Source: a virus (taxonomy: Duplodnaviria > Caudoviricetes). From it: 64,000 bases of DNA. Under the pieces are notes generated by a model that was not told the origin of the DNA, ran no database searches, and was given only the letters and a program-made list of their open reading frames with translations. The DNA lies in the IMG/VR virus record IMGVR_UViG_3300031784_000006; one strand, given 5' to 3'. Of this stretch, positions 10,921-31,761 are shown in pieces. Each line of letters opens with the position of its first letter. Position 1 is the first letter of the stretch. The translations under genes and the position numbers were made by a program.

Positions 10921-11274
10921 GAATTGGTTAGACCAAGTTAATTCCCCAGTTGAATTTGTTTTTAAGAAGTAAGAACCAGCAGGATTTTCTGGAAAAGTGT
11001 ATGTTGTGATTCCAGAGAGAGTGTTCGGAGCTTTAAAGGAAATATGATTTGTTCCGTCTTTATCTACAAGATTTAAGCGGAGAGAAGTACTTGCATCTTC
11101 TCTTCCCCAATAACGATGAGAACCGAAGAATTTATTACCATTAACAGACGTGTTTAGTCCTACAAATAAATCATATTTGTCAAGTGTTAATGCAGGTTCA
11201 CCTGGACGAAGAGCAGGAATAGTTGCCGCCGCCCCAATATTACCACGCTTAAACTGTAAGATTGGTGAAGCCAT
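8446..11274 (-). CDS. Tail-fibre/adhesin-like protein with PKD-like domains (module A, gene 1)
   Basis: 942 aa; N-terminal ILQFKRG...LRPGEPAL anchor motif; YDVDWGDG and YTMGWGDG PKD signatures; C-terminal ~820 aa paralogous to 27676..31722. Confidence 0.8.
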   Translation of the reverse strand: MASPILQFKRGNIGAAATIPALRPGEPALTLDKYDLFVGLNTSVNGNKFFGSHRYWGREDASTSLRLNLVDKDGTNHISFKAPNTLSGITTYTFPENPAGSYFLKTNSTGELTWSNQFPSVSVSGVVTATNYYGEGGALTLGTPTDSSITSNGALNTLTTSTKIVDSIDDLNELAFNIIRNTAVTNVDFSSNTLAGGSPLAVTLTVTSSGNANRYDVDWGDGTTTSNYSSASIPHTYSDANGGLFSITLTAKNNTGVGAGSSFTTSKTDYITLYTPNPVVGFALYRGSSGGSALSGNDLYVVEGESLYLDNNTTNTSGATVDYTMGWGDGSSNDSIANDSASGGAGAGAARLQHTWSQGTNSSTGTDTLTLTLNSHNTANPGVIPATGTVALKVYDDSPAAPDGLSSKTLTNVTSVGTSPKLASGFTDNTGGAVLSAGNDVNRVTGGSAEAGPISTFAYNANSGTLTANVNGSSDGSTTLTSGDDSGTYTSLVITSESDYQLLNSTGATTTFAASTFYPGLYKGFKAKVSKLVSNLNTGLNSMQLLHSATGNTNTVEFVKDDMTGTPTVSVAGASLAENVSGTYRYVSGIPYYNTGSPSLTLSGVTVTNIVGQTYTNQSNIVEVDTGTNQEGTSSAGTTDSDYTYSQINGSSSMLTGGIPNANTGTSSAYTLGNLTVPITSSSVRTVDRVKVRARNVNGISGYSSDIGTNIQVHTAAQSGISELAIAVSDSLGNGTYTDDGKRIYDFGPGIATDTPSYNSSTNFYTNNPYSEGSAPAGITTTREAVVRLGNITHNQVNYSTGYLPVGPDFSSNRSGTQYFTFAFRRQAVANVNVNITSSGITGLWIAAPGTSIDSTSTLNGWLRADTVYAGSGVPGANTGAGGNGSNGCADTPGDVISSGTSLSGSYTLTLGSENLSNATGNVLLVRIALASGQSVTSLSIT

Positions 11275-16122: not shown

Positions 16123-16901
16123 AAGTCAAACTTGGAATAAAGTTTTACATTCTCTTCTCCTATTACATCAATAGGATTTTGTGAAATTTTAGCAAGATTT
16201 GGACGAATATCGTGAAGCCCTTTAAGTCCCCATTCTTCATCCTTTTGTTCTCCACAAGCATTTTCAATATTATTAAAAGTATTTGTATGAGATGGAACTT
16301 CTAGAAAGTTGTAAATCTTATTAAGTTCTTCTTCTGGATTATTTACAAGAGCATTATATTCAACTAAATGAACCCAATCTGGATACTTATTGAGTCCATA
16401 AATCATTGATTCATAAGAAGGAGCAACATAATATCTCCAAATGTATTCGGCACGATTGTTATTTGTGATTGGTAGATTATCTTTTCTTAAATGATTATCA
16501 ATGAAGTTATTTTCGTGTTGAGTTCTTTCTATAAGTGAAATATAAGATGTAAGAACTTCTGGTATAGAACGATAAGTTGCTACAATCTTTGGTTTGTTAG
16601 AAAGAAACATTTGAACTGTATCAAGGTTCTTTCCCCAAAACCGATGCTTATCTAGGATTGTTGATTTTGGAATGTGATTATAAAAGTTTGCAAGAACTGC
16701 CTTATAGACATTATAAGAGATTGCCTTGCGGTCAAAGGTGAATTGAATATCTAAAGTATTAAATGATTTCTCAATATCAGTCACTACATCACCCAATGGA
16801 GATGTTGGTGATACATAAATGTCTGGATGTTGATTGAGAAGAGACCCAAGTAATGTAGAACCACTTCTTGGAAGTCCTCCAAGAAAATATAATGTCTTCA
16901 T
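16119..16901 (-). CDS. Sulfotransferase family protein
   Basis: 5'-PAPS loop GLPRSGSTLL; ILDKHR; YRSIPEVLTS; LVEYNALVNNPEEELNKIYNFL. Confidence 0.8.
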   Translation of the reverse strand: MKTLYFLGGLPRSGSTLLGSLLNQHPDIYVSPTSPLGDVVTDIEKSFNTLDIQFTFDRKAISYNVYKAVLANFYNHIPKSTILDKHRFWGKNLDTVQMFLSNKPKIVATYRSIPEVLTSYISLIERTQHENNFIDNHLRKDNLPITNNNRAEYIWRYYVAPSYESMIYGLNKYPDWVHLVEYNALVNNPEEELNKIYNFLEVPSHTNTFNNIENACGEQKDEEWGLKGLHDIRPNLAKISQNPIDVIGEENVKLYSKFDL

Positions 16902-16925
16902 AGTTTATTGCTTTCTTATTATGTA

Positions 16926-18113
16926 TTATATCACAGGGTCTATGTATGTGAGTGCTGATGTATGAAAATATGCAGAACTTACTTGTTTCCAGTTGGTTCC
17001 TCCGGCAAAGGTAGTGACTGGAGTACTTATGTTACCTGCTATTACTGCGTTTCCAAGTCTTCCACTATTACCAGAACCCCAAGTCCATAGAGTTCCATCA
17101 GTCTTGATTGCTGCTGTATGAGAAATTCCACCACTTACTTGTTTCCAGTTGGTTCCACCAGCAAATGTGGTGACTGGAGTGGATACATTGGTTGTTACTG
17201 CGTTTCCAAGTCTTCCATTAGCACCATTACCCCAAGTCCATAAGGTTCCATCAGTCTTGATTGCTGCTGTATGAGCATTATTATATCCAGAACTTACTTG
17301 TTTCCAGTTGGTTCCTCCAGAGAATGTGGTGACTGGAGTGGATACATTGGTTGTTGTTGCGTTTCCAAGTCTTCCATAACCACCAGCACCCCAAATCCAT
17401 AAGGTTCCGTCAGTCTTGATTGCTGCTGTATGAGAAACTCCAGAACTTACTTGTTTCCAGTCGGTTCCACCAGCAAAGGTAGTGACTGGAGTACTTATGT
17501 TACCTGTTGTTACTGCGTTTCCAAGTTTTCCTTGACTACCAGAACCCCAAGTCCATAAGGTTCCATCGGTCTTGATTGCTGCTGTATGAGAATTTCCAGA
17601 ACTTACTTGTTTCCAGTTGGTTCCTCCAGAGAATGTGGTGACTGGAGTACTTATGCTACCTGTTGTTGCTCCGTTTCCAAGTCTTCCATTACCACCAGAA
17701 CCCCAAGTCCATAGAGTTCCATCGGTCTTGATTGCTGCTGTATGAGAATTTCCACCACTTACTTGTTTCCAGTTGGTTCCACCGGCAAATGTGGTGACTG
17801 GAGTACTTATGCTACCTGTTCCTACTGCGTTTCCAAGTCTTCCACTAAAACCAGTACCCCAAGTCCATAGAGTTCCATCGGTCTTGATTGCTGCTGTATG
17901 TTCTCTTCCACCACTTACTTGTTTCCAGTTGGTTCCTCCAGCAAATGTGGTGACTGGAGTGGATGTATTAATTATTGTTGCGTTTCCAAGTATTCCATTA
18001 GAACCAGAACCCCAAGTAAATAAGTTCCCTTCACGAAATAACTCAGCAGGAACAAAGATATCATCAAAACTATAATCAAGTCCGTTTTCTCTAAAGTTAT
18101 AAAAGGTAGGCAT
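16926..18113 (-). CDS. RCC1-repeat 7-bladed beta-propeller protein 1
   Basis: Seven ~52-aa repeats STPVTTFAGGTNWKQVSxGxxHTAAIKTDGTLWTWGxGxxGxLG. Confidence 0.9.
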   Translation of the reverse strand: MPTFYNFRENGLDYSFDDIFVPAELFREGNLFTWGSGSNGILGNATIINTSTPVTTFAGGTNWKQVSGGREHTAAIKTDGTLWTWGTGFSGRLGNAVGTGSISTPVTTFAGGTNWKQVSGGNSHTAAIKTDGTLWTWGSGGNGRLGNGATTGSISTPVTTFSGGTNWKQVSSGNSHTAAIKTDGTLWTWGSGSQGKLGNAVTTGNISTPVTTFAGGTDWKQVSSGVSHTAAIKTDGTLWIWGAGGYGRLGNATTTNVSTPVTTFSGGTNWKQVSSGYNNAHTAAIKTDGTLWTWGNGANGRLGNAVTTNVSTPVTTFAGGTNWKQVSGGISHTAAIKTDGTLWTWGSGNSGRLGNAVIAGNISTPVTTFAGGTNWKQVSSAYFHTSALTYIDPVI

Positions 18114-18135
18114 TGGGATTTCTTGGAAACGACTT

Positions 18136-18495
18136 TTACTCTATAAAAATCACAGGAGTGTTCATTTTTTCACTCCACTCTTGAAGATATTGTCTAACTT
18201 CGGAATTCATTTCTTTATTATTTATTCTCAATGCTTTTAGATATTGACCATTCTCATTTTGCTCCACAGACACCAGTACATCACATTTATCGGGTCTCAT
18301 TTCTTCGGGAAGTAAATGCTGACTCCAAGCACATTGATAATTTCTACAAGATTCTGGTCGTCCTTTATGAACTCCACATCCATTACATTCTAAAAACTTA
18401 CAAGACTTTCCTGCTCCAAACTCCCAAGCAAAAGAATCACCAATTAACCAAGTACAACAAGCAGTGCATTCTCCACAATCACGAAACATATTCAT
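18136..18495 (-). CDS. YkgJ-like CxxCxxCC cysteine-cluster (Zn/Fe-S) protein
   Basis: CGECTACC...CKFL...CGVHKGRPESCRNYQC. Confidence 0.75.
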   Translation of the reverse strand: MNMFRDCGECTACCTWLIGDSFAWEFGAGKSCKFLECNGCGVHKGRPESCRNYQCAWSQHLLPEEMRPDKCDVLVSVEQNENGQYLKALRINNKEMNSEVRQYLQEWSEKMNTPVIFIE

Positions 18496-19163
18496 ATGTT
18501 TATATAAGATTTCTCATTGTATATATCCTCATAAAAATCACCAATATCTCCATTCATTCTAGAATGAAATAGACATTTTGCATTGCAATTTGGATTACTA
18601 CCAATCCAGAGTTCTCTATCAAGTCTATAATCACTTTCCAAATATTTGTCATCTAATGTATTAATGTAAGAAGAATTTGCCCACCAAAAATTACCAGCAA
18701 AAAAAGAAGTGTTTTCTTTTGGATAACTCATAGAACCATCACCCCATAAAGTTGGTCCTGTTGGATAATGGTCAGTACCACAACAATCATAATCTTCCAA
18801 ATATTTTATACATTCTTTCCATTTATCAATCACAAAATATTCCATATATAATCTCCAAGCATTTGTTTGAAGATTGGTTTTACTTGCTCCTTTAGTATGA
18901 AAATAAAGAACCTTATAGTCTGAATTTTCCCTACAAAAATCTCTTAAGGACATTAGGGTTTCTGTTTCTTCTTTCCAATTATAGTTTCTTTTTATGACCG
19001 CTTTTTCTGGTACATTGAATAATTCCTGATCTCCATTCACTCCAAAGTGAATATGAGATGCATCTTTGACAAGACCTGAAGTATATAACCTATGCAATTG
19101 TTGCTGATAAACGAAGGCACCTAAACCTATTTGGGCAATATGATAAAAGATTGCGAGTTTCAC
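18492..19163 (-). CDS. Glycosyltransferase-like hypothetical protein
   Basis: KVLYFHTKG ... FFAGNFWWANSSYI motif common in phage glycosylation clusters. Confidence 0.45.
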   Translation of the reverse strand: MKLAIFYHIAQIGLGAFVYQQQLHRLYTSGLVKDASHIHFGVNGDQELFNVPEKAVIKRNYNWKEETETLMSLRDFCRENSDYKVLYFHTKGASKTNLQTNAWRLYMEYFVIDKWKECIKYLEDYDCCGTDHYPTGPTLWGDGSMSYPKENTSFFAGNFWWANSSYINTLDDKYLESDYRLDRELWIGSNPNCNAKCLFHSRMNGDIGDFYEDIYNEKSYINI

Positions 19164-19948
19164 GAATGATATACTCCTCCATTTTCTCCAGACATTCCTT
19201 TAACCATAGTAAGACCAAGATTTGAAATACTAATGATATTGTCTTTATTGATAAAACGATAAAGAGAATGTTCTACATCAGTGCCAGCAGTATATTGAAT
19301 CATTCTTTCCATATACTTAAATGCTTTCTCAAGTGCTTCTACTGCATCATTAAATAATATTCTATCAAAAGACCAGAGACCAGTAATCATCATACCTTTT
19401 GCACCATAGAGATATGCATAAACATTCTCAAGTTCTTTCTCATCATAGTTTTCTGTTTCTTGAGGTAGATACTCATATCTTTTTAGAATATACTTACCTT
19501 CTAGAAACTTACTTTGATAATCTTTTATATCAAAATCATCGTTCAATAAGTATCTACCAGTAAGTTTAAAAACTCTTTGACTATCACTGAATAGATTGTG
19601 TTTCTTGATTACATAAAGGGTATTTAATAATCCTCTTGTTTCTAATAATGATTTGCCATAAGTAATCAATTCTGGTCTTTCTTCGAGATTCTCATAGATT
19701 TGTTTTAGAACTGGTTCTTCACAAAACTCTAAAAACAAATCTGCTTTTTCTTTAAGAATATCTTTTTGTTTTTCTTCAATCGGTCTAGAAGAGCACTCAA
19801 ATAAAACCACATAAGACTCTGGAACTTTATTACGAATACATTCAATCGTTTCTAATGTTTGATTAAATCTTTGCTCTTCATCATAAGCACTGAACTTATC
19901 TTCTTGAAAGTGTTTGAGTGCTGAACCAACTAAAAATAAAAATTTCAT
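19160..19948 (-). CDS. Glycosyltransferase-like hypothetical protein
   Basis: RFNQTLETIECIRNKVP ... RVFKLTGRY pattern; coupled by ATGA overlaps. Confidence 0.4.
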   Translation of the reverse strand: MKFLFLVGSALKHFQEDKFSAYDEEQRFNQTLETIECIRNKVPESYVVLFECSSRPIEEKQKDILKEKADLFLEFCEEPVLKQIYENLEERPELITYGKSLLETRGLLNTLYVIKKHNLFSDSQRVFKLTGRYLLNDDFDIKDYQSKFLEGKYILKRYEYLPQETENYDEKELENVYAYLYGAKGMMITGLWSFDRILFNDAVEALEKAFKYMERMIQYTAGTDVEHSLYRFINKDNIISISNLGLTMVKGMSGENGGVYHS

Positions 19949-20403
19949 AGGTAATCTGTATTAAAACTAATAATAATTCTTTCTTCTGTTTCTTCTTCTG
20001 TGAAGTGAACTAAATCACTTGAGAAGATTACTAACAACCCAGGATAAGGTTTGATTGATGTATCTGGAAAAATGAGTGGAGTGCTTCCAGAAATATAAAA
20101 TGCTCCACTTATAATACTTTCTTCGTGCTTATGTGCTTTGAGTTTATTTCCTGGTTGCGAGATATTAAACCAACTATTGATAAATTTTAGAGGTGGAATA
20201 TAATACTTATTACAATATAGTCTTACATATTGCTTAAGAATGTTTTTTAATCCAGTCAATTCTGGGTACATTAAAGTAGGCATTCCGTGATTATAAGTAG
20301 AAACACCTTTTGTTACAAGTCCGTGAGAAGAAGTTTCTATTTCCAGAAGTTTGCTCTTGATGGTATTTAGATTGAGAAAAGAAAGGTTATACTCCTCTAT
20401 CAT
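19945..20403 (-). CDS. 2OG-Fe(II) oxygenase-like protein
   Basis: SWFNISQPG...AHKHE..ISGAFYI...LVIFSSDLVH...RIIISFN. Confidence 0.7.
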   Translation of the reverse strand: MIEEYNLSFLNLNTIKSKLLEIETSSHGLVTKGVSTYNHGMPTLMYPELTGLKNILKQYVRLYCNKYYIPPLKFINSWFNISQPGNKLKAHKHEESIISGAFYISGSTPLIFPDTSIKPYPGLLVIFSSDLVHFTEEETEERIIISFNTDYL

Positions 20404-21727
20404 TCATAAACTCTCCAAACTCTTTAATGGTGGCGTCCCAAGTTCTTGGTTTCTTTTGACGGAATAGATGAACATTATCTCCATACCACCAAGACTTACC
20501 AGTAGAACTTGTCCATACATAATACTCCATAATCGGCACAAATACACAAACTTCTTTACCCATTGATGCTGCAATATGAGCAATAGAAGTGCAAGAAGTA
20601 ATCACCAAATCCATTTGAGATACGATAGAGAATGTATCTGTAAAATCACGATTTGGAATATCAAAAGTCTTTACATCATAACCTTCTGGTGGTTGTTCAT
20701 CTGGTAGTTGAAGTGAATAGAGTGATGCATTGGTTTTTGAAACAACATCAAATAATCCATCAGCATTCACTGAACGAAAATGTGCTTGTTCAAATCCAGA
20801 ACCAGAGTTCCAGAACATACCAATCTTAAACTTTTGGTCTTCTTGTAAATAAGAATATTGTTCTTCTTTTTCTGGAAGTGGTTTGATATATGGTGTTTGT
20901 CCTAAATCTTCTACTTTAAGATTGAGATAGTAAGGAAGTGCAAGACCATAAACCCAACAAGCATCTTTTGGTAGTTCTGGATTATCCCAAACACACTCAA
21001 CTTCAAATCCATTGTATTGAAAGATTTTTTGTAGGTCTCTTCGTGTGGTTGTCCAGACTGGTTTCATTCCAAGTTTTTCAATGTGTTTCATAAAACGAAT
21101 GTGAATAATCTCATCACCAGCACCACACTGATTATCAATAATAATAGTTCTTCCTGGAGTTACTATTCCATTCCACTTCTCAAACTCTGGAAGTTTTCTG
21201 TTTTTATATGCCTCAACCTCTCCTGCTTTGAGGAAATGTTGAAGTCCTGTATGAATATCATCCTTACGGAAATAATGTCCTGATAGATTATGATATGCTT
21301 TTCTTTCAATCTCCTCTGGAAGTTTATATTTAAGAAGATTGAAGAGTAGTTTTTCTGCTTTCTCTTTTTGATTCAGTGCAGAATAAGAGAAAGTTTCCTC
21401 AAGAAGCAGTTCAGTATCTTGAGGATTTTGTGACTTGATTTTTGAGATTTGAGTTAGTGCTTTATCTGGATAATTATTTTGATTATATGCGTTGATTAGA
21501 TTTTTTGTGGTTGTATAGTTTTCTTCTTTTGTTTTTGTGAGTTTTAATGCTTTTTCTCCACAGATTATAGCATTTGAGAAATCTTTTATCTCAAAGAAAA
21601 TCTTGGCAACATCATTGTGTTGCTCAAAGGTTTCTGCTCTTTTACCAAATGCTTGAAGAACTTGTGTTGTAAGTTCTTTTTCTTCAAACGAATATAAGGT
21701 CTTTGCTACCAACTCAAGTGGATTCAT
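20387..21727 (-). CDS. TPR-containing GT9-like glycosyltransferase
   Basis: Helical N-terminus; GAGDEIIHIRF; DLVITSCTSIAHIAASMGK C-terminal GT-B motif. Confidence 0.75.
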   Translation of the reverse strand: MNPLELVAKTLYSFEEKELTTQVLQAFGKRAETFEQHNDVAKIFFEIKDFSNAIICGEKALKLTKTKEENYTTTKNLINAYNQNNYPDKALTQISKIKSQNPQDTELLLEETFSYSALNQKEKAEKLLFNLLKYKLPEEIERKAYHNLSGHYFRKDDIHTGLQHFLKAGEVEAYKNRKLPEFEKWNGIVTPGRTIIIDNQCGAGDEIIHIRFMKHIEKLGMKPVWTTTRRDLQKIFQYNGFEVECVWDNPELPKDACWVYGLALPYYLNLKVEDLGQTPYIKPLPEKEEQYSYLQEDQKFKIGMFWNSGSGFEQAHFRSVNADGLFDVVSKTNASLYSLQLPDEQPPEGYDVKTFDIPNRDFTDTFSIVSQMDLVITSCTSIAHIAASMGKEVCVFVPIMEYYVWTSSTGKSWWYGDNVHLFRQKKPRTWDATIKEFGEFMNDRGV

Positions 21728-21751
21728 TGTATGATTATGATGTATTTTGAG

Positions 21752-21759
21752 TATTTAGA
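21752..21759 (-). promoter_or_regulatory. T4-type late promoter (TCTAAATA) heading the modification operon
   Basis: Motif built on the TAA stop of RCC1 gene 2, 25 nt upstream of ATG 21727. Confidence 0.55.
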
Positions 21760-22981
21760 TGAAGTCTGATGATTTGATTGCTGCTGTATGAAAACCTCCA
21801 GAACTTACTTGTTTCCAGTTGGTTCCTCCAGAGAATGTGGTGACTGGAGTGGATACATTGGTTGTATCTTTGGTTCCAAGTCTTCCAAGACTACCATAAC
21901 CCCAAGTCCATAAGGTTCCGTCAGTCTTGATTGCTGCTGTATGACTTACAAGAGATGAACTCACTTGTTTCCAGTTGGTTCCACCAGCAAAGGTAGTGAC
22001 TGGAGTACTTATGTTACCTGTTGTTACTGCGTTTCCAAGTCTTCCACTATTACCAGAACCCCAAGTCCATAAGGTTCCATCAGTCTTGATTGCTGCTGTA
22101 TGAGAATTTCCACCACTTACTTGTTTCCAGTTGGTTCCTCCGGCAAATGTGGTGACTGGAGTACTTATGCTACCTGTTGTTACTGAATTTCCAAGTCTTC
22201 CATTAGAACCATCCCCCCAAGTCCATAGAGTTCCATCGGTCTTGATTGCTGCTATATGATGATATCCACAACTTACTTGTTTCCAGTTGGTTCCTCCAGC
22301 AAATGTGGTGACTGGAGTGGATGTACTAGTTATTGTTGCGTTTCCAAGTTTTCCACTACCCCCCTCCCCCCAAGTCCATAAGGTTCCATCAGTCTTGATT
22401 GCTGCTGTATGATAACCTCCAGAACTCACTTGTTTCCAGTTGGTTCCACCAGCAAAGGTGGTTACTGGAGTACTTATGATACCTGTTCTTACTGCGTTTC
22501 CAAGTCTTCCAGTAAGACAATAACCCCAAGTCCATAAGGTTCCATCAGTCTTGATTGCTGCTGTATGAGAAGCTCCAGAACTTACTTGTTTCCAGTTGGT
22601 TCCTCCAGAGAATGTGGTGACTGGAGTGGATACATTGGTTGTTGTTGCGTCTCCAAGTTTTCCAAAAAAACCATCCCCCCAAGTCCATAGAGTTCCATCA
22701 GTCTTGATTGCTGATGTATGAGCTCGTCCACCACTTACTTGTTTCCAGTTAGTTCCTCCAGAGAATGTGGTGACTGGAGTGGATGTAGTAGTAGTTATTG
22801 TTGCGTTTCCAAGTATTCCACTAGAACCATGACCCCAAACCCACAACTCTGGAGTCTTTCCAATTTCTTGAGCGATACTTGGATAAACACTCATCAAATA
22901 ATCTTTAGTTATAAATTCATAAGCAACATCAACACCATTACTTCTTCTGAAGTTAGTAGTTACTCTCTGATTAGAACTCAT
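21755..22981 (-). CDS. RCC1-repeat 7-bladed beta-propeller protein 2
   Basis: Seven repeats, framework nearly identical to gene 1 at DNA level. Confidence 0.9.
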   Translation of the reverse strand: MSSNQRVTTNFRRSNGVDVAYEFITKDYLMSVYPSIAQEIGKTPELWVWGHGSSGILGNATITTTTSTPVTTFSGGTNWKQVSGGRAHTSAIKTDGTLWTWGDGFFGKLGDATTTNVSTPVTTFSGGTNWKQVSSGASHTAAIKTDGTLWTWGYCLTGRLGNAVRTGIISTPVTTFAGGTNWKQVSSGGYHTAAIKTDGTLWTWGEGGSGKLGNATITSTSTPVTTFAGGTNWKQVSCGYHHIAAIKTDGTLWTWGDGSNGRLGNSVTTGSISTPVTTFAGGTNWKQVSGGNSHTAAIKTDGTLWTWGSGNSGRLGNAVTTGNISTPVTTFAGGTNWKQVSSSLVSHTAAIKTDGTLWTWGYGSLGRLGTKDTTNVSTPVTTFSGGTNWKQVSSGGFHTAAIKSSDFI

Positions 22982-22982
22982 T

Positions 22983-23660
22983 TTACTCTGCTACTGGTGG
23001 TTGAATTTCTTCTGGAAGTTCTCTCACAATCACATCATAAACTTCATCAATGGTCTCACAAGCATCAATCTCTTGAAGTTTTGCAAGTTCCCAATCAAAT
23101 GCTGCTTGAACTACTTTGTCAATTTCACTTACAATATATTGAAGATTTTCTGTGCTAACTTCTAACCAACCACTCAAGAACTTAAAATTATGAGAATCTG
23201 GTGCTGCACTTAACTTACTTGCAAGCAACACTCTTTCTTCTCTTGAAGTTGATACTTGAACTGAATTTCCATTAACATCTAAAGTAATTATTGTATTTTC
23301 TTTTTCTTTTCTGTATGGAGAAACTTCTTGTTTGCGAATTACTTTAACTTCTTCTAGAGTCTTATCAACAATTGGATAAGTAAATATTACTTTTATTGGA
23401 ATATCATCTTCAATATCTTCAATGATTTCCCAAGTAAAGTTTCCAATATTATGATACTTTGGATCGTGTTCTGGAACTACCTTTTCAATTGGTAGAAGAT
23501 GTGTAAGACCATCACTAAAATGAATTGGAAGGTCTGTATAACTTTGTGGAGAAATTCTTTCTTCTACTTCAAGGTCTTCTAAATCGGCATTAATGTATTT
23601 CACATTAAATCCCATTGGACCAAGTTCTAATGAGTTATTGTGAATGAGTGCGATTTCCAT
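22983..23660 (-). CDS. DUF4376-like (fibre-assembly-type) protein
   Basis: C-terminal LEEVKVIRKQEV..RKEKE...QAAFDWELAKLQEIDACETIDEV pattern. Confidence 0.55.
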   Translation of the reverse strand: MEIALIHNNSLELGPMGFNVKYINADLEDLEVEERISPQSYTDLPIHFSDGLTHLLPIEKVVPEHDPKYHNIGNFTWEIIEDIEDDIPIKVIFTYPIVDKTLEEVKVIRKQEVSPYRKEKENTIITLDVNGNSVQVSTSREERVLLASKLSAAPDSHNFKFLSGWLEVSTENLQYIVSEIDKVVQAAFDWELAKLQEIDACETIDEVYDVIVRELPEEIQPPVAE

Positions 23661-23674
23661 TATAGTTTTTTAAG

Positions 23675-23682
23675 TATTTATG
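23675..23682 (-). promoter_or_regulatory. T4-type late promoter (CATAAATA)
   Basis: Motif built on the TAA stop of RCC1 gene 3. Confidence 0.55.
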
Positions 23683-24859
23683 AGATTGGTAGGTCTGGTG
23701 TGGTTCCGGAGAAGACTGCTGATGTATGTCGAAATTCTGCAGAAACTTGTTTCCAGTTAGTTCCTCCAGCAAATGTAGTGACTGGGGTTGATTTGGTGAC
23801 TGATGTATTATCTCCAATCTGAGCATAAGCAGATGATCCCCAAGTCCATAATGTACCATCAGTTTTGATTGCTGCGGTATGAGAATCTCCGCCAGAAACT
23901 TGTTTCCAGTTAGTTCCTCCAGCAAATGTTGTGACTGGAGTTGATTTTGTGACTAATGTACTATCTCCCAATTCACCTCTAGCATTATAACCCCAAGTCC
24001 ACAAGGTTCCATCAGTTTTAATTGCTGCTGTATGATAACCTCCAGAACTTACTTGTTTCCAGTTGGTTCCTCCAGCAAATGTGGTTACTGGAGTGCTTCT
24101 ATTGGTTAATGTATTATCTCCCAAACCTCCAAAAAGATTATAACCCCAAAGCCATAAAGTTCCATCGGTTTTAATTGCTGCAGTGAAGACACCGCCACAA
24201 GAAACTTGTTTCCAGTTAGTTCCTCCAGAAAATGTTGTGACTGGAGTTGATTTTGTGTCTAATGTACTATCTCCTATTCCCCCGAATGAATTGCGTCCCC
24301 AAAGCCATAAAGTTCCATCAGTTTTAGTTGCTGCAATATGGCCAGCTCCACAAGAAACTTGTTTCCAGTTAGTTCCTCCAGCAAATGTAGTGACTGGAGT
24401 ACTTCTGGAACCTGTGGCATTAATTCCTATTTGCGAATACTGATTTTGTCCCCAACACCACAAAGTTCCATCAGTTTTAATTGCTGCTGCATGATATTGT
24501 GCAGTAGAAACTTGACGCCAGTTAGTTCCTCCAGCAAATGTAGTGACTGGGGTTGATTTGGTGACTGATGTATTATCTCCCAATATTCCAAAGGAATTAA
24601 TTCCCCAAGTCCACAAAGTCCCATCAGTTTTTATTGCTGCTTTATTTTTAAATCCACCAGCAACTTGTTTCCAGTTGGTTCCTCCAGCAAATGTAGTGAC
24701 TGGAGTGGATCTATTACCAGTAGCGTTGATTCCTAATTGGCTAACATCATTTCGTCCCCAAGTCCACAACTCATCACCAATATACTGGTCTATTAGTTGA
24801 TACTCAGTTACAAAATAATTTTCTAAATCTCCTTCTGGTGATAAGAACTGATTAGGCAT
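23678..24859 (-). CDS. RCC1-repeat 7-bladed beta-propeller protein 3
   Basis: Seven repeats, same amino-acid framework but different synonymous codons; overlaps the upstream fibre gene by 8 nt. Confidence 0.9.
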   Translation of the reverse strand: MPNQFLSPEGDLENYFVTEYQLIDQYIGDELWTWGRNDVSQLGINATGNRSTPVTTFAGGTNWKQVAGGFKNKAAIKTDGTLWTWGINSFGILGDNTSVTKSTPVTTFAGGTNWRQVSTAQYHAAAIKTDGTLWCWGQNQYSQIGINATGSRSTPVTTFAGGTNWKQVSCGAGHIAATKTDGTLWLWGRNSFGGIGDSTLDTKSTPVTTFSGGTNWKQVSCGGVFTAAIKTDGTLWLWGYNLFGGLGDNTLTNRSTPVTTFAGGTNWKQVSSGGYHTAAIKTDGTLWTWGYNARGELGDSTLVTKSTPVTTFAGGTNWKQVSGGDSHTAAIKTDGTLWTWGSSAYAQIGDNTSVTKSTPVTTFAGGTNWKQVSAEFRHTSAVFSGTTPDLPIS

Positions 24860-27674
24860 TTAATTTTCTCTCCAACTCTTCGATACGAATTTGCTGCTCT
24901 TTAATTGCTTCAATTAATACTCCAATCATATTAGAGTAACTTACTGACTTTATACCATCACCATTAGTTTCAACGAGTTCGGGTAAAACTTTTTCAACAT
25001 CCTGTGCAATTAAACCAAGTGAAGGTTTATCATTATTTATCCAATCGAACCTTACTCCTTGAAGTTGTTTTGTAAGTTCTATCGAATTTTCAATAGGTCT
25101 TACATTTTTTTTCTTTGTAGCATCAGAAAGAGAGGTAAATTGAGTAGCTGATAAATTCCCTGTTGATGGTACATATTGAAGTTCTGAATTTACATTTGCC
25201 TCACTGTTTCCACCTAAAGTATCTGTAAATACAAGATATCTTGTTGATGGGGATGATGAAGATGCAAATGATAATTGAGATGCAGTAGTCGCGGTAGTCG
25301 CGGTAGTTGCGCTAGTTGCGCTAGTTGCATTTCCACTAAAAGAAGATGCGGTTACAATTCCCGTGACATTCAAAGAAGTTAATGTACCTACTGATGTCAA
25401 ACTAGAGGCAGTAACACTAGAACCTAAAGTTGTTGCATCAAGAACTGCAGTTCCATTAACTCGATATGTTTGTCCAGATGCAATATTTAAACCACCCGAC
25501 AATGTTCCGACAGAGGTTAAAGATGAAGTAACAACATTTGCGCCCAAAGTTGTTGCAGATAAAACATTGACCCCGGCAATTTGATAAGTATTTCCTGTAA
25601 TTAAATTGTGAGTACCTGTTGTCACAATTCCAGATACACTTAATTGCCTAGAGAATAATGTTGTTCCGGTAACAGTTGCAATACCAGCAAGAGTTGTTGT
25701 TCCAGATACATTTAGAGAAGTTAGAGTTCCAACAGAAGTTAGAGAAGAATTAACAACTCCAGAACCTAAAGTTGTTGCATCAAGAACATTGGTATTATTA
25801 ATTTTATAAGTCTGCCCTGAATCAATGTTAAGGCCACCCAACAGTGTACCTATAGATGTTAAAGAAGAATTAACAACTCCAGAACCTAAAGTTGTTGAAG
25901 ATAACACCTCAGTATTATTAATTTTATAAGTCTGAGCCGAAGCAATATTAAGACCACCCGACAGTGTACCTATAGATGTTAAAGAAGAATTGACAACACC
26001 AGAACCTAAAGTTGTTGCAGTGAGAACTGAAGTCCCATTGATTTTATAATCATTTCCTGTGGTTGCATTATATCCACCTGAAGTTGTTACTCCAGCAACA
26101 ACTAATCTAGTTAGAGTTCCAACAGAAGTTAGAGAAGAATTAACAACTCCAGAACCTAAAGTTGTTGCATCAAGAACATTGGTATTGTTAATTTTATAAG
26201 TCTGCCCTGAATCAATGTTAAGGCCACTAGAAAGAGTTCCAACAGAAGTTAATGATGAGTTGACAACTCCAGAACCTAAAGTTGTTGCATCAAGAACATT
26301 GGTATTATTAATTTTATAAGTCTGCCCTGAATCAATGTTAAGGCCACTAGAAAGAGTTCCAACAGAAGTTAGTGATGAGTTAACAACTCCTGAACCTAAA
26401 GTTGTTGCAGTGAGAACTGAAGTCCCATTGATTTTATAATCATTTCCTGTGGTTGCATTATATCCACCTGAAGTTGTTACTCCAGATATTAAAACGTTTC
26501 CTACGACAGTAAAGGTTGATGTTGGATTTGTTGTTGCTATTCCAACACTAGAAAAAGTATGAATGCCCGTAGGATTGGAGACCCATTGAGATGAAGCTCC
26601 ACCACCAGACGAAGTAACAGTAACTACTCCAGCAGATATTGTAGAAACTGTTAAATTATCACCAAAATCTATCGTACCTGCCGTTCCAACTAAAATTCCA
26701 GAGTCTCTGATAATAATCCCAGACCCAGAAGCAGTAATGCCAGTCAGTCCAGAACCATCACCAACAAATACTGTAGCAGTGACGATTCCAGTTACATTTA
26801 CGTCTCCCCTAACATCAAGTTTTGATGTTGGGTCTATGGTTCCTATCCCAACATTTCCATTCAAACGATAAATATCGCTTTGATAAGTATTTGTTGGATT
26901 TTCATACTCCCAATTTCCACCACCGATACTAATATCAACAACTTTAGTTCCTGCATTATATGAAATAGAATTACCAGAACCAACAAAATTTAATGCAGTA
27001 ATAATCCCCGTTGCGATATTGACACTTCCGGACTGAATGCCAATACCCCGAATACCGCCCACAAATGTGGAAACACCAGATACATTTAAATTTCCAGTTA
27101 AATCTAAATTTGTAAAGGTATTTGCAGAACCTACTGCAGGAACTCCTTTAATTCCACTATAAACTGCACCACTAATATAAACACTCTTTCCAGTAAAATT
27201 AACTCCACTAGGAAGGTTTGTTCCAATAAAGTTTAAAGTTCCTGATTGGTAGTCGAAGAACCACTCATCATTATTACCAGAACCTGCAGCAACTAATTGA
27301 GTTCCAGATGCAGCAGCAGTTGCTGCGTTACCTGAAGTATGAACGTAGACTTTTACGAGATAAGTAGAACCAATTTCTGGCGGAACCCAATCTGTAATAT
27401 TTGTTTTCCAAGTTCTATTTGTGGACGAAGTAGTATCTGCAGTACATTCGACGGGTAGTGATGTTGGATATAAAGTAACTACTGATGTACTACTACCGGG
27501 AATAGTTGTTGGTATTAAATTTGATTGAGCCCAGACATTATCACCTCTCAACAATAACGCACTTGAGATGGATTCGTTTACTGCATCCTTAATTGCTGCA
27601 GTATCAGTCTTCGCTCTACCATAACCAATTTTTTTCCAGAGATAGTCTATCTTCTGATCGTTTGAAATAGCCAT
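24852..27674 (-). CDS. Tail fibre with 40-aa shaft repeats and C-terminal peptidase S74 chaperone (module B, gene 2)
   Basis: 940 aa; N-terminus paralogous to 5277..8429; TTLGSGVVNSSLTSVGTL repeats; SLSDATKKKNV...GVRFDW...LGLIAQDVEKVLPELV. Confidence 0.85.
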   Translation of the reverse strand: MAISNDQKIDYLWKKIGYGRAKTDTAAIKDAVNESISSALLLRGDNVWAQSNLIPTTIPGSSTSVVTLYPTSLPVECTADTTSSTNRTWKTNITDWVPPEIGSTYLVKVYVHTSGNAATAAASGTQLVAAGSGNNDEWFFDYQSGTLNFIGTNLPSGVNFTGKSVYISGAVYSGIKGVPAVGSANTFTNLDLTGNLNVSGVSTFVGGIRGIGIQSGSVNIATGIITALNFVGSGNSISYNAGTKVVDISIGGGNWEYENPTNTYQSDIYRLNGNVGIGTIDPTSKLDVRGDVNVTGIVTATVFVGDGSGLTGITASGSGIIIRDSGILVGTAGTIDFGDNLTVSTISAGVVTVTSSGGGASSQWVSNPTGIHTFSSVGIATTNPTSTFTVVGNVLISGVTTSGGYNATTGNDYKINGTSVLTATTLGSGVVNSSLTSVGTLSSGLNIDSGQTYKINNTNVLDATTLGSGVVNSSLTSVGTLSSGLNIDSGQTYKINNTNVLDATTLGSGVVNSSLTSVGTLTRLVVAGVTTSGGYNATTGNDYKINGTSVLTATTLGSGVVNSSLTSIGTLSGGLNIASAQTYKINNTEVLSSTTLGSGVVNSSLTSIGTLLGGLNIDSGQTYKINNTNVLDATTLGSGVVNSSLTSVGTLTSLNVSGTTTLAGIATVTGTTLFSRQLSVSGIVTTGTHNLITGNTYQIAGVNVLSATTLGANVVTSSLTSVGTLSGGLNIASGQTYRVNGTAVLDATTLGSSVTASSLTSVGTLTSLNVTGIVTASSFSGNATSATSATTATTATTASQLSFASSSSPSTRYLVFTDTLGGNSEANVNSELQYVPSTGNLSATQFTSLSDATKKKNVRPIENSIELTKQLQGVRFDWINNDKPSLGLIAQDVEKVLPELVETNGDGIKSVSYSNMIGVLIEAIKEQQIRIEELERKLNA
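25370..26480 (-). repeat. ~8 copies of a 120-nt (40-aa) shaft repeat
   Basis: Anchor a/gcc(t/c)aaagttgttg at ~25422, 25542, 25764, 25884, 26004, 26154, 26274, 26394. Confidence 0.85.
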
Positions 27675-30140
27675 TTTACGCTGCAGCTCCTATACTAAGA
27701 CTTGTTACGGATTGCCCTGAGTTCAAAGCAATTCTTATAAGAACAACATTACCAGTAGCATTACTCATGTTTTCGCTACCTAGTGTCATAGTATAACCAC
27801 CACTTAAAGATGTTGATGCAAGAATTCTATCTCCATTAGTGAAAGCACAACCATCAGAACCATTTCCACCCGGCCCACTACCAGGAACTCCAGAACCTCC
27901 ATAAGCAGTATCTGCTCTTAACCAACCATTTAATCCACTTGTAGTATCTATACTTGTTCCTGGAGCAGCAATCCAAACACCAGCGACACCAGTTGAACTT
28001 GTAATGTTAATATCAAAGTTAGCAACAACTCTTCTTCTAAACGCAAAAGTAAAATACTGAGTTCCACTTCTTCCTGATGAAAAATCTGGACCAACTGGAA
28101 GATATCCAGTAGAATAATTTACTTGATTGTGAGTGATAGCACCCAATCTAACAACTGCTTCTGCTGTTGTAGTAATTCCTGCCGGAGAAGATGATTCGGA
28201 ATATGGATTGTTAGTATAGAAATTAGTTGCTCCATTATAAGAAGGAGTTGTCGTAGTAACTCCAGGGCCAAAATCATAAATTCTCTTTCCATTATCAGTA
28301 TAAGTTCCATCACCAAGTCCAGAAGGAACTGCTATTGAAATTTCACTAATTTCACTCTGCGCTGCAGTATGAACTTGAATATTAGTAGCAATATCACTTG
28401 CGTAACTACTGGTTCCATTTACATTCTTAGCACGAACTCTAACTCTATCGATAGTTCTTACACTTGATGTTGTAATAGGAACTGTTAGGTTACCCAATGC
28501 ATATGGGGAAGACACCCCAACATTAGCAATAGGTATTCCTCCACTCAACATACTTGAAGGACCATTAATTTGAGTATATGTATAATCAGTATCTGGTGTA
28601 GCTGCACTGGAGGTTCCCTCTTGGTTTGTTCCAGTGTCAACTTCAACAATGTTTGTTTGGTTAGTGTAAGTTTGTCCTGTTAAATTAGTAACCGTTAATC
28701 CGGATAAAGTTAGAGTTGGTGAACCAGTGTTGTAATATGGAATACCAGAAACATAACGATAAGTACCAGCAACATTTTCTGCAAGTGTTGCAGTCGAAAT
28801 ACTTACAACAGGTGTGGCAGTTACATCATCCTTAACAAACTGCACTGCGTTTGTATTACCAGTGTCACTATGAAGCAATCTCATACTATTCACACCAACG
28901 CTTAAAGCAGAAACTGCTTTTGAAACTTTTGCCTTAAATCCTTTATACAACCCAGGATAATAGATACTTGAGGCAAAAGTTGTAGTTGAACCAGAAGAAT
29001 TCAATAACTGATAATCACTCTCTTCTGTAATTACCAAACTTGTATATGTTCCAGAATCATCACCACTAGTTAATACTCGGGAACCATCGGAGGAACTGTT
29101 TACATGTGCTGTAAGAGTTCCACTATTTGCATTATATGCAAACGAAGAAGTTGCCGTGGCTTCAGCAGTTCCACCAGTTACACGAGTAACATCATTCCCT
29201 GCGGATAAAGTAGTTCCGCCAGTATTATCAGTAAATCCAGAAACAAGTCTTGGATTTGTCCCTGTACTAGTGACATTAGATAATGTTTTACTACTTAATC
29301 CATCTGGAGCTGCAGGAGCATCATCGTAAACTTTCAACAATGCAGTTCCGTTAGTGGGAATAACGGCAGGGTCTGCAGTGTTATGTGCGTTTAAAGTTAA
29401 AGTAAGCGTATCTCTAGTTGTAGAACTATTTGTTCCCTCGGACCAAGTATGCTGAAGTCTTGAAGCAGAAACATCTGCTCCACCATTAGCAGTATTGTTT
29501 GCAATAGAATCATTTGATGAACCATCCCCCCAATTCATTGTATAATTGACTGTTGCTCCACTTGTATTTGAAGTATTATTATCTAAGTACAGTGATTGCC
29601 CTTCAACTACATATAAATCATTTCCAGAAAGAACTGAACCCCCAGAAGATGCTCTATACAAATCAAAAGTAACCACTGGATTTGGCGTATAAACTGTAAT
29701 ATAATTACTCTTTGCAGTAGAATAACTGCTTCCTGCACCAATTCCAGAATTATTTTTAGCAACTAAAGATATTGAGAACTGTCCACCAGCAGGTTGGGTA
29801 TATGTATGTGGAATAGAAGCAGATGTATAGTTTGATGTTGTTGTACCGTCTCCCCAATCAACATCATAACGATTAGCGTTTCCAGAACTTGTAACCGATA
29901 GTGTAATTGATAGTGGAGAACCTCCAGCTAATGAATTTGAAGAGAAATCTACATTAGTGACTGCAGTATTTCTTATAATATTAAATGCAAGTTCGTTGAG
30001 GTCATCAATACTATCAACCAACTTAGTACTTCCAGAAAGAGTATTGAGTGCCCCGTTGCTAGTAATACTAGAATCTGTTGGAGTTCCTAAAGTTAATGAA
30101 CCACCTTCTCCATAATAATTTGTTGCAGTTACAACACCAC
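27140..30140 (-). repeat. Copy B of the ~3 kb direct repeat
   Basis: Colinear with ~7900-10920; boundaries approximate. Confidence 0.8.
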
Positions 30141-31722
30141 TAATATTTGCGTCAGTGTTAAAATTTGTGGAAGTGGATGATATTGTAGCGGATAATGAAC
30201 CATTATTGTAGAAGAATAAAATATTTTCATTTGCTCCAGGAGATGATTCTGGAATAATATAGGTGTTGCCATCAACATCCTTAACACCACCAAGAGAACC
30301 CCAAGAACCACCAGGTCCATAACCTTCAAAGGTTGAGAATTCAGTGTTATATCGGATTTGTCCAGTTACAGCTACACCAACAGAATCTCTTTGTGCTGTT
30401 GTCCCAACAGGAATTTGAATGGAATTTGTGCTGTTAAAAATAACTCTGTTATTAAAAGTAGATACTCCAGATACCGATAACTGGTCGTCAACAATTACTG
30501 TGCCATCAAAAGAATTAAGTGTTAGGTTTCCTGAAGAGGTATCAATTTCATTATCATCCGCAACACCTATTCTTACATTATCAATTGTTGCTCCATTGTT
30601 TGCATCAATTAAATTAGTAAAGGTTGATATTCCTGTTACATTTAAATTATTACTTACATTTAAATCTGAATTAACATCAACTCTGTTATTAAAAGTAGAT
30701 ACTCCAGATACTGATAATTGGTCGTCAATTATTATTGTACCCTCAGCAGAATCAAGTGTTAGATTTCCAGAGGAAGTATCAATTTCATTATCATCAGCAA
30801 TCCCAATTCTTACATTATCAATCGTTGCTCCATTGTTTGCATCTATGGTATTGGAGAATGTAGAAACACCAGTTACGGTCAAATTATCACTTATATTCAG
30901 ATCTGAATTAATATCAACTCTACTGCTAAAAGTAGATACTCCAGATACCGATAACTGGTCGTCAACAATTACTGTGCCATCAAAAGAATTAAGTGTTAGG
31001 TTTCCTGAAGAGGTATCAATTTCATTATCATCCGCAACACCTATTCTTACATTATCAATTGTTGCTCCATTGTTTGCATCAATAGTATTAGAGAATGTAG
31101 AGACTCCTGCAACATATAGATTATCATTAAATGTAGAAAATCCAACAAATGTACTAATTCCACTTAATGTTGTATTCCCACCTACATATAAATCTTGGAT
31201 TAAGTTAACATTATCATTAAATGTAGAAAATCCAGAAATACTTAATTGATTTGAAAATAATGTTTCCGAAATAGTAGTAATTCCGGACAAAGTTGAAATG
31301 CCATTTACAGTAATATTGTTGGAAACAAAAACATCTCCAGAAACTGTCAATTCTGAAGATGGATTTGTTGTTGCTATACCAACTTTACCACCACCGGTTG
31401 CGAGAACAACGTCTTTATCTGTTGAAGAATTTATTTCTAAAACATCTAAAGTATGAGAATTGAAAGAAATATTTCCCTTCAAAACTCCATTTTGCTTAAA
31501 ATTCAAATAAGAAGTTGAAGTAATTCCAGAATCAATATCTAAAAAGGATTCTCCCTCAGTGCTTCTAACAGATAATTTAGCTTTGGGTGGAAAATATAAC
31601 TCTAAATCTGCTGCGGGATTTGTGGTTCCCAGACCAACTCTACCAGTATCTGCATCAGCAACAATGAGATTTGAGTTAACCTCTAAACCATGTTTTACTA
31701 CAAAGTTTTTGTTTATACCCAA
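27676..31722 (-). CDS. Tail-fibre/adhesin-like protein with PKD-like domains (module B, gene 1)
   Basis: 1348 aa; N-terminal KNFVVKHGLEV fibre motif, 79-aa shaft repeats, IPVGTTAQR motif, C-terminal PKD region paralogous to 8446..11274. Confidence 0.8.
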   Translation of the reverse strand: MGINKNFVVKHGLEVNSNLIVADADTGRVGLGTTNPAADLELYFPPKAKLSVRSTEGESFLDIDSGITSTSYLNFKQNGVLKGNISFNSHTLDVLEINSSTDKDVVLATGGGKVGIATTNPSSELTVSGDVFVSNNITVNGISTLSGITTISETLFSNQLSISGFSTFNDNVNLIQDLYVGGNTTLSGISTFVGFSTFNDNLYVAGVSTFSNTIDANNGATIDNVRIGVADDNEIDTSSGNLTLNSFDGTVIVDDQLSVSGVSTFSSRVDINSDLNISDNLTVTGVSTFSNTIDANNGATIDNVRIGIADDNEIDTSSGNLTLDSAEGTIIIDDQLSVSGVSTFNNRVDVNSDLNVSNNLNVTGISTFTNLIDANNGATIDNVRIGVADDNEIDTSSGNLTLNSFDGTVIVDDQLSVSGVSTFNNRVIFNSTNSIQIPVGTTAQRDSVGVAVTGQIRYNTEFSTFEGYGPGGSWGSLGGVKDVDGNTYIIPESSPGANENILFFYNNGSLSATISSTSTNFNTDANISGVVTATNYYGEGGSLTLGTPTDSSITSNGALNTLSGSTKLVDSIDDLNELAFNIIRNTAVTNVDFSSNSLAGGSPLSITLSVTSSGNANRYDVDWGDGTTTSNYTSASIPHTYTQPAGGQFSISLVAKNNSGIGAGSSYSTAKSNYITVYTPNPVVTFDLYRASSGGSVLSGNDLYVVEGQSLYLDNNTSNTSGATVNYTMNWGDGSSNDSIANNTANGGADVSASRLQHTWSEGTNSSTTRDTLTLTLNAHNTADPAVIPTNGTALLKVYDDAPAAPDGLSSKTLSNVTSTGTNPRLVSGFTDNTGGTTLSAGNDVTRVTGGTAEATATSSFAYNANSGTLTAHVNSSSDGSRVLTSGDDSGTYTSLVITEESDYQLLNSSGSTTTFASSIYYPGLYKGFKAKVSKAVSALSVGVNSMRLLHSDTGNTNAVQFVKDDVTATPVVSISTATLAENVAGTYRYVSGIPYYNTGSPTLTLSGLTVTNLTGQTYTNQTNIVEVDTGTNQEGTSSAATPDTDYTYTQINGPSSMLSGGIPIANVGVSSPYALGNLTVPITTSSVRTIDRVRVRAKNVNGTSSYASDIATNIQVHTAAQSEISEISIAVPSGLGDGTYTDNGKRIYDFGPGVTTTTPSYNGATNFYTNNPYSESSSPAGITTTAEAVVRLGAITHNQVNYSTGYLPVGPDFSSGRSGTQYFTFAFRRRVVANFDINITSSTGVAGVWIAAPGTSIDTTSGLNGWLRADTAYGGSGVPGSGPGGNGSDGCAFTNGDRILASTSLSGGYTMTLGSENMSNATGNVVLIRIALNSGQSVTSLSIGAAA
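30443..31115 (-). repeat. Three copies of a 237-nt (79-aa) shaft repeat
   Basis: Anchors at 30481, 30718, 30955; outer copies identical over ~155 nt. Confidence 0.85.
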
Positions 31723-31753: not shown

Positions 31754-31761
31754 TATTTATA
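31754..31761 (-). promoter_or_regulatory. T4 late promoter (TATAAATA)
   Basis: Exact T4 consensus upstream of 31722. Confidence 0.7.

Follow-up and report, generated by a model that had tools for sequence, protein, structure and literature searches.

What use a tailed phage has for several genes named after the eukaryotic regulator of chromosome condensation is the question raised by a stretch of 64,000 nucleotides of viral DNA (Caudoviricetes; IMG/VR record IMGVR_UViG_3300031784_000006), here called the window. The window belongs to a T4-like freshwater cyanomyophage, and its closest named relative is Synechococcus phage S-SRM01, with 76% nucleotide identity across the matched part. Three RCC1-like genes, which we call g1, g2 and g3 (Table 1), are contained in a long array of co-oriented genes on the minus strand. 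S-SRM01 has the same three genes with the order kept (gp335, gp337 and gp344), all labelled 'regulator of chromosome condensation'. Our analysis suggests that the products are propellers made of repeats that evolve in concert within a genome, while a few loop residues, predicted to lie on one face, are under selection to change. This evolutionary mechanism is well supported by the sequence comparisons described below, and a function of the propellers as virion adhesins, inferred from their context, is plausible.

The three proteins are built in the same way, with a class-specific N-terminal leader, an RCC1-like propeller of seven repeats and a short C-tail. They scored between 229 and 241 bits against PF25390 (cut-off 150) and between 195 and 211 bits against PF00415, the latter in seven stretches each, all well beyond the thresholds of Pfam. 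Cutting the sequences at the motif STPVTTF, with which all 21 units begin, gave exactly seven units per gene with a period of 51-53 amino acids. Of the 21 units 18 are complete; the last one in each gene breaks off at the end of the HT(A/S)A strand (the second inner one), and an N-terminal (F/W)xWG segment provides the final strand that it lacks, a velcro closure of the kind by which such propellers are usually closed. An AlphaFold (AF2) model of g2, computed with 36 homologs (predicted TM score, pTM, 0.72; mean predicted local distance difference test, pLDDT, 65.6), contained three confident strands per blade (WKQVSG, HTAAIK and TLWTWG), with the outer strand and the linker weakly modelled. 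In a Foldseek comparison of this model with the PDB the best matches were the RCC1-like domains of HERC1/2 and RPGR, and then UVR8, RCC1 and BLIP-II (E about 1e-21, TM 0.74-0.84). Both results point to a predicted seven-bladed beta-propeller. The database name 'regulator of chromosome condensation' denotes the fold only; to our knowledge Ran is absent from bacteria and phages.

Over two blocks of the repeat, STPVTTFxGGTNWKQVS and HTAAIKTDGTLWxWG, the column entropy of the 21 units was zero or near zero. High values were found in unit columns 18 and 22-23, before the His in the A-B hairpin, and in columns 40, 42, 43 and 45, after WG. An initial annotation of the window, made from its letters and open reading frames, had described 21 blades with a near-invariant framework and two short variable windows. 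The framework and both windows are confirmed by the entropy values, and all the loop strings that it listed are present, although it missed that a third window, the linker running from LGN to STP (columns 49-55), also varies; this linker comes in two types. In the relatives, 217 blades belonging to 50 distinct proteins were parsed, and they had 167 distinct sequences in the first loop and 181 in the second, with a composition rich in Ser, Asn, Tyr and Gly. The two loops had a length of four residues in 90% and 98% of these blades, respectively, and such nearly fixed lengths indicate that the variation proceeds by substitution.

Specifically, we have examined where these columns would lie on the propeller. 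In the g2 model the first window is the three-residue turn of the A-B hairpin, leading from the innermost strand to the next, and the second comes directly after strand C; given the up-and-down meander topology, both loops would leave the sheet at the same end. HMMER aligned the first window with the Trp-Arg of the GWRHT motifs of UVR8; the counterparts of the second were W94 and D96 in its WGWGDFG motif, and these residues build the dimer interface of UVR8 (PMC4501546). This map, topological and homology-based and not measured on coordinates, supports the placement of the variable columns on one propeller face, as the initial annotation had suggested. With some seven variable residues per blade, they would make up a ring of about 49 residues on that face, and the opposite one, formed by the FAGGTNW and KTDG loops, would be invariant.

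In order to estimate the rates of change, the nonsynonymous and synonymous values (dN and dS, or pN and pS) were all obtained by a counting method (NG86). Among the 12 blades of g1 and g2 the scaffold had a dS of 0.25 and a dN of 0.03, and the dN was 1.19 for loop 1, 0.79 for loop 2 and 0.51 for the linker. In g3 the linker changed at approximately the neutral rate (omega about 1). The same columns in 10 other genomes gave loop pN values of 0.43-0.68, to be compared with scaffold values of 0.11-0.45 for pS and 0.05-0.16 for pN. The cleanest case was the ortholog pair formed by g2 and its counterpart in a syntenic locus (L036, protein P0074), in which, at equal time depth, the loops changed some two times faster than silent sites and some 16 times faster than the residues of the scaffold. 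Actually, the scaffold of this pair had a pS of 0.258, close to the pS values of 0.28-0.32 of four flanking genes (pN 0.025-0.14), and a pN of 0.035, and the loops had a pN of 0.56-0.58 and a pS of 0.08-0.22. Only one of the 45 leader residues differed between the two proteins (98% identical), compared with 5% of the scaffold and 72-86% of the loops. Overall, the loop dN/dS was about 2-7 (NG86 partitions) in 11 genomes and in the syntenic pair with its flank controls. The silent sites of the loops were not raised, indicating selection and not local hypermutation. A replacement rate above the silent rate indicates, as far as sequences can tell, diversifying selection, in agreement with the loop diversification proposed in the initial annotation. 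We also considered the shuffling of blades alone as the source of the differences between orthologs and discarded it, since the loop strings of P0074, compared by eye, have almost no counterparts among the 21 blades of the window.

The blades also differ in how much DNA they have in common. Those of g1 and g2 form one pool (mean blade-to-blade nucleotide identity 84.5%, maximum 94%), and g3 is separate, with 75% within the gene and 68% to the other two. The near-identity in DNA earlier ascribed to g1 and g2 was thus overstated. These two genes have 25 exact tracts of at least 32 nucleotides in common, the longest of 77. Sharing between g2 and g3 was modest, the longest exact match being of 40 nucleotides (nucleotide 673 of g2 and 775 of g3); their most similar pair of blades, g2_b3 and g3_b5, has a common GGY loop and 80% identity. 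When 29 propeller bodies, stripped of leaders and tails, were compared in a maximum-likelihood tree, they grouped by genome, with 16 label changes against a mean of 22.4 after shuffling (0 of 500 shuffles were as low), and not by locus class (14 changes against 12.9 shuffled). Several lineages contained sister pairs of paralogs from one genome or one phage lineage. Besides, g1 and g2 of the window have in common a derived linker type, GxGxxGRLGNAVTTGxIS, that is not found in the S-SRM01 orthologs, all the blades of which have the xNxxGQLGDNTxxxRS type. The clustering by genome bears out the idea, already present in the initial annotation, that the blades are homogenised by recombination.

Codon usage in the blades was also peculiar. 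The scaffold of the 21 units is written with rare C-ending codons (AAC 20/20, GTC 19/21, ATC 14/18 and TCC 8/21) in a genome that uses AAT in 81%, TAT in 83% and GTC in only 7% of the cases, and the loop codons follow the bias of the genome. The retention of rare codons against this bias suggests that the scaffold DNA has been inherited and spread as blocks. Its silent sites may themselves be selected, for example to keep the homology needed for recombination. The blade DNA evolves in concert within a genome, inside each gene and also between paralogs separated by as much as 5 kb, and the simplest cause would be gene conversion, or unequal exchange, at the conserved blocks.

Similar genes are widespread. 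At least 7,994 related proteins were detected in metagenomes at E <= 1e-10; the best among the matches listed were 77-79% identical, and the listed proteins had between 305 and 712 amino acids, many of them encoded on contigs of 100-260 kb. With the gene for a 225-aa protein located between g3 and g2 as anchor, we retrieved 34 syntenic IMG/VR loci. In all of them this gene was located between RCC1 genes, and nearly all had the order fibre, class 3, anchor, class 2, enzymes and class 1. The classes are those of the N-terminal leaders, three of which recur across the related proteins. The distinct short leader that the initial annotation had seen in each gene is therefore a class conserved across many phage contigs. 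The number of repeats varied between 5 and 18 units per gene in the syntenic loci, as found in metagenome assemblies of repeats. Among the multi-propeller versions, one protein of 1170 aa (L010:4471-7983) had 15-18 repeats (15 RCC1 according to Pfam), and the remaining ones (the class-1 gene of L033, and L013 and L028) include a protein of 822 aa and 14 units, the others having 12-13; the blade counts are approximately doubled or tripled. A class-1 ortholog (L006:13502-15181; 559 aa in total) had an insertion of about 165 aa after the first seven leader residues, in which Pfam found nothing. The comparison with one of the syntenic loci (L002) gave nucleotide identities of 96.3% for the g2 leader, 91-92% for the flanks and 69.2% for the propeller. 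In general, leaders and flanks of close relatives were 90-96% identical and propellers 68-69%. By analogy, a divergent propeller within a conserved leader and flanks corresponds to the usual mosaic of receptor-binding proteins.

The genomic context is that of a tail-fibre module. The start of g3 overlaps by 8 nucleotides the stop of a gene for a 940-aa fibre with a Peptidase_S74 domain (PF13884, E 2.5e-14), neighbouring genes match tail-fibre PHROGs, as does the 940-aa protein itself with many of them, and the synteny extends to more than 30 loci. The 225-aa anchor protein matched phrog_10508, 'tail fiber protein', at E 1.3e-6, and its ortholog has a weak precomputed match to DUF4376. In a relative with a 232-kb contig (L035:333-5465, plus strand) the fibre at the same position has 1710 aa and includes an RCC1-like domain (aa 952-1301) upstream of the Peptidase_S74 domain. 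The propeller of this fibre is complete, has the same scaffold motifs and is about 50% identical to the family of the window; the C-terminus of the 940-aa fibre is 47% identical to this RCC1-containing fibre. The homologous fibre of 1225 aa in a close relative (L034:1787-5464) had no propeller, and in another locus (L023) the class-3 protein had an added Gly_rich_2 domain. Indirect support comes from the jumbo coliphage phAPEC6, the published virion proteome of which includes six 'DNA condensation proteins' of about 40 kDa and which encodes eleven RCC1-like proteins (PMC7247149). According to our reading of Table 1 in that work, the six virion proteins may be among the eleven.

With this context we lean towards the propellers being modular and interchangeable host-binding heads of the tail-fibre region, which seems to us somewhat probable. 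Since the N-terminal strand closes blade 7, the leader would come to lie beside the C-tail, and both, adjoining in space, may form a 'handle' on the propeller. The leader would dock it on a site of the virion fibre or of the baseplate, and the variable face would bind a structure on the host surface. The propellers would then act as interchangeable host-recognition heads, as gp38 adhesins do for T-even phages.

Several points weigh against the propellers being host-binding heads. Virion location and binding are both deduced from context, and the paper on S-SRM01 gives no proteomics. Enzymes of glycosyl-, sulfo- and oxygenase type are encoded in between the propeller genes, and another role in this island is possible. 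The 15 proteins matching the g2 leader all had RCC1 domains, and none of them combines a leader with a known receptor-binding tip. The omega values come from NG86 counting on few codons, near saturation and with recombination present, and the columns were chosen after viewing the data of the window and retested in other genomes that share its ancestry. The confidence of the AF2 model was moderate, with the outer strand and linker poorly modelled and the loops only modestly reliable. A complex prediction of g2 with the 225-aa neighbour, run without controls, had a score of 0.00 and bears neither way.

The same propellers could have other functions. They might be intracellular binders, made during infection in order to bind and block variable host proteins (for instance of defence or surface biogenesis), the arms race driving the loops. 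The structural matches include BLIP-II, an RCC1-like propeller that inhibits beta-lactamase, an arms race between any two proteins would account for diversifying selection on one face, and the leaders, as read from the sequences, have no evident signal peptide. However, the genes are located in a co-oriented late structural array, with g3 overlapping a fibre gene, the same propeller family is fused into the S74-type fibre of L035, and three conserved leader classes at fixed gene positions look like docking addresses, so that we regard intracellular binding as unlikely. Quite unlikely, in our judgement, is an accessory or lectin of the glycan island with the invariant face, or a pocket in each blade (FAGGTNW, KTDG), as its working surface, which would recognise a conserved sugar or assist the transferases encoded nearby and leave the variable loops a secondary part. 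The high identity of the blades would then mirror seven equivalent sites. Genes for a sulfotransferase, a GT2, a 2OG oxygenase and a TPR-type protein are interspersed with the RCC1 genes in all relatives, and the invariant face is kept across phages whose loops share nothing. Nevertheless, replacement in the loops above the silent rate is not expected for residues that are merely unconstrained, and no lectin propeller was found among the top PDB matches of the g2 model. N-x-S/T sequons in the Thr/Asn-rich linkers were not above the level of shuffled sequences, giving no hint of the propellers as glycosylation substrates.

The variation of the loops might, on the other hand, have no binding role at all, if recently amplified repeats were kept alike by structure and gene conversion and the loops drifted freely. 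The loops are indeed short surface turns, the linker of g3 changes at a roughly neutral rate, and the closest g3 ortholog shows few loop changes. We consider such relaxation very unlikely because the loop pN (0.5-0.6) exceeds the pS of scaffold and flanks (about 0.26-0.30) at equal time depth, which holds in 11 genomes, and the composition of the loops is biased as in binding sites. The opposite extreme would be a programmed diversification (retroelement-type mutagenesis or site-specific blade shuffling) that often rewrites loops or blade order within a population. Two signs seemed to favour it: 82-86% of the loop codons are NNT, at first sight similar to adenine mutagenesis of AAT codons, and short metagenome contigs link scaffold 31-mers to other loops. 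The NNT codons were rejected as the footprint of a retroelement, since they reproduce the normal bias of the genome and the mismatches between blades are not biased to adenine (share at A with a mean of 0.28 and a maximum of 0.5, for an A content of 0.33). No blade-like template copy exists in the 64-kb window outside the three genes. The contigs came from the comparison of positions 16800-25000 with four freshwater metagenome runs; they are short and break at the repeats, and joints with sides of about 31 nucleotides are expected from repeats and co-occurring relatives. Besides, in lineages recovered from 2 to 6 different metagenomes the RCC1 genes were identical to the base, and the nearest g3 ortholog (88% identical, L005/L006) has kept all the loops in the first 150 residues or so. 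The loop silent sites, as mentioned, are not elevated. We find a programmed mechanism extremely improbable; the comparisons describe an evolutionary regime, as opposed to a programmed mutator. The initial annotation had anticipated a diversification that needs no reverse transcriptase, which agrees with the lack of adenine bias and of a template within the window; the clonal lineages and the conserved loops do not support its 'system' if this is taken as an active and frequent diversifier.

Returning to the host-binding heads, a more ambitious scheme can be outlined, although we see it as rather doubtful. The frozen, atypically coded blocks of about 50 nucleotides would be kept alike as substrates for recombination, and the three docking classes, and also co-infecting phages, could trade loops and blades with one another. 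In this way the T4-like cyanophages of fresh waters would have an antibody-like, recombination-driven repertoire of host-binding heads on a propeller scaffold.

The features of the locus are collected in Table 1. The five genes between g2 and g1 code for a TPR-type protein of 446 aa, a 2OG-Fe(II) oxygenase, proteins of 262 and 223 aa and a Cys-rich protein of 119 aa. They are part of a glycan-modifying island that extends beyond the downstream end of g1, where a sulfotransferase and a GT2 are encoded. The 119-aa protein (18136-18495, minus strand) has a CGECTACC... motif and belongs to phrog_9155, of unassigned function. Its gene is kept directly upstream of the class-1 RCC1 gene in the relatives, and it is found beside RCC1 genes even in the distant L034 and L035. 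Within the gene for the 262-aa protein (19439-19829) contigs of a second variant were found in four freshwater metagenome runs from four studies, with about 24-38 clustered substitutions per contig. Contigs identical to the window were also present in three of the four runs at similar depth, and the second variant points to co-occurring strains or to a recombined segment.

Table 1. Positions of the RCC1-like genes, their leaders and neighbouring features in the window
Feature	Coordinates	Strand	Description and evidence
g1	16926..18113	-	395-aa RCC1-like 7-blade propeller; ORF, Pfam RCC1 x7 and PF25390, unit parsing
g1 class-1 leader, MPTFYNF...SFDD	18024-18113 (~aa 1-30)	-	Leader class kept in relatives; C-tail ALTYIDPVI
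Five tightly packed co-oriented genes	18136..21727	-	Between g2 and g1; same order in S-SRM01 and IMG/VR loci
g2	21755..22981	-	408-aa RCC1-like 7-blade propeller; ORF, Pfam, AF2 model, Foldseek
g2 class-2 leader, ...TKDYLMSVYP...	22847-22981 (aa 1-45)	-	Partly helical; C-tail AAIKSSDFI
Anchor gene, 225 aa	22983..23660	-	Between g3 and g2; weak tail-fibre-type similarity
g3	23678..24859	-	393-aa RCC1-like 7-blade propeller; ORF, Pfam, unit parsing
g3 class-3 leader, MPNQFLSPEGDLENYF...	24770-24859	-	C-tail AVFSGTTPDLPIS
Tail-fibre-type protein, 940 aa	24852..27674	-	Directly upstream of g3; C-terminal Peptidase_S74 intramolecular chaperone domain
T4-type late-promoter-like TATAAATA	31754..31761	-	31 nt upstream of the 1348-aa structural gene; consensus match only

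The array that holds the fibre and RCC1 genes is headed by the gene for a structural protein of 1348 aa. The late-promoter motif TATAAATA has two matches in the window, a number not above chance, and between the genes of the minus strand, as far down as position 14000, no convincing terminator was detected. The window has two paralogous fibre modules of two genes each (5277-11274 and 24852-31722, minus strand), and RCC1 genes follow only the second. A C-terminal domain of about 545 aa (phrog_8578) is common to the proteins of 942 and 1348 aa, and an N-terminus of about 185 aa (phrog_9417) to those of 1050 and 940 aa. Inside the gene of the 940-aa fibre (25752-26166, minus strand) there are about ten repeats of some 40 aa (TTLGSGVVNSSLTSVGTL...). 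The DNA of these repeats contains three identical 25-nucleotide hairpin-like sequences that were caught by the terminator scan; being intra-coding, they are probably not terminators.

A comparable evolutionary regime is known from fungi. The study by Paoletti, Saupe and Clave (2007) on the HNWD family of Podospora anserina (the WD40 repeats of het-d and het-e) describes concerted evolution in and between paralogous loci, with variable repeat number, very high identity between repeats and a handful of codons per repeat, located on the interaction surface, under diversifying selection (PMC1805685). In repeat identity, concerted evolution, variable repeat number and few selected codons, all seen in the phage propellers, the regime matches point for point. 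The fungal system differs in its WD40 fold, its role in self/non-self recognition and the hypermutation by RIP (repeat-induced point mutation) proposed there; the phage system has the RCC1 fold, and its three loci, each with the leader of its class, belong to a tail-fibre module. Among phages, the gp38 adhesins of the T-even group bind the fibre tip by an N-terminal attachment domain and carry a C-terminal specificity domain with hypervariable segments; conserved motifs form the structural core, separate these segments and are the sites where recombination tends to take place (Trojet et al., 2011; PMC3157838). Both systems combine an address peptide with a scaffold that is conserved and loops that are hypervariable, and both are found in T4-like phages. 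However, gp38 is a single small protein of unrelated fold (a glycine-rich core with four loops) and its receptor binding is proven, whereas the propellers have a seven-blade scaffold with about 14 loops, three paralogs and a binding role read from context.

Diversity-generating retroelements (DGRs) depend on a reverse transcriptase and a template repeat, and the changes involved are adenine-specific. Those of the type of Mtd in Bordetella phage BPP-1 also act on a binder associated with the tail fibre, with a fixed scaffold and few hypervariable positions. The phage propellers differ in having neither a template copy nor an adenine bias in the window, and a different scaffold fold. UVR8, RCC1 and BLIP-II have the same fold (TM 0.7-0.84), and the variable columns align to the dimer-face residues of UVR8. 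RCC1 binds Ran and BLIP-II binds beta-lactamase through the equivalent face. In these proteins, however, the blades are about 20-30% alike and there is one fixed partner each, with no repertoire, concerted evolution or viral context. The phage phAPEC6 and its relatives also encode arrays of RCC1-like proteins of about 40 kDa, but they are distant relatives and their authors proposed a DNA-condensing role (PMC7247149). Phage RCC1-like genes are thus already annotated in databases and noted in jumbo coliphages. In the literature on RCC1 together with cyanophages or receptor-binding proteins, where 'RCC1' mostly denotes strain numbers of culture collections, we have found no account of a hypervariable face, concerted evolution or a host-binding role.

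The compact and stable scaffold, with about 49 tolerant positions on one face, would be an attractive framework for binders. S-SRM01 is a cultured relative with the same three genes and a Synechococcus host, which makes direct tests feasible. Should the propellers be host-binding heads, they would represent the second natural propeller repertoire diversified by concerted evolution and selection, after the fungal WD40 recognition genes, and the first in a virus. In addition, abundant lake cyanophages would have in them a major host-range determinant, hitherto undescribed.

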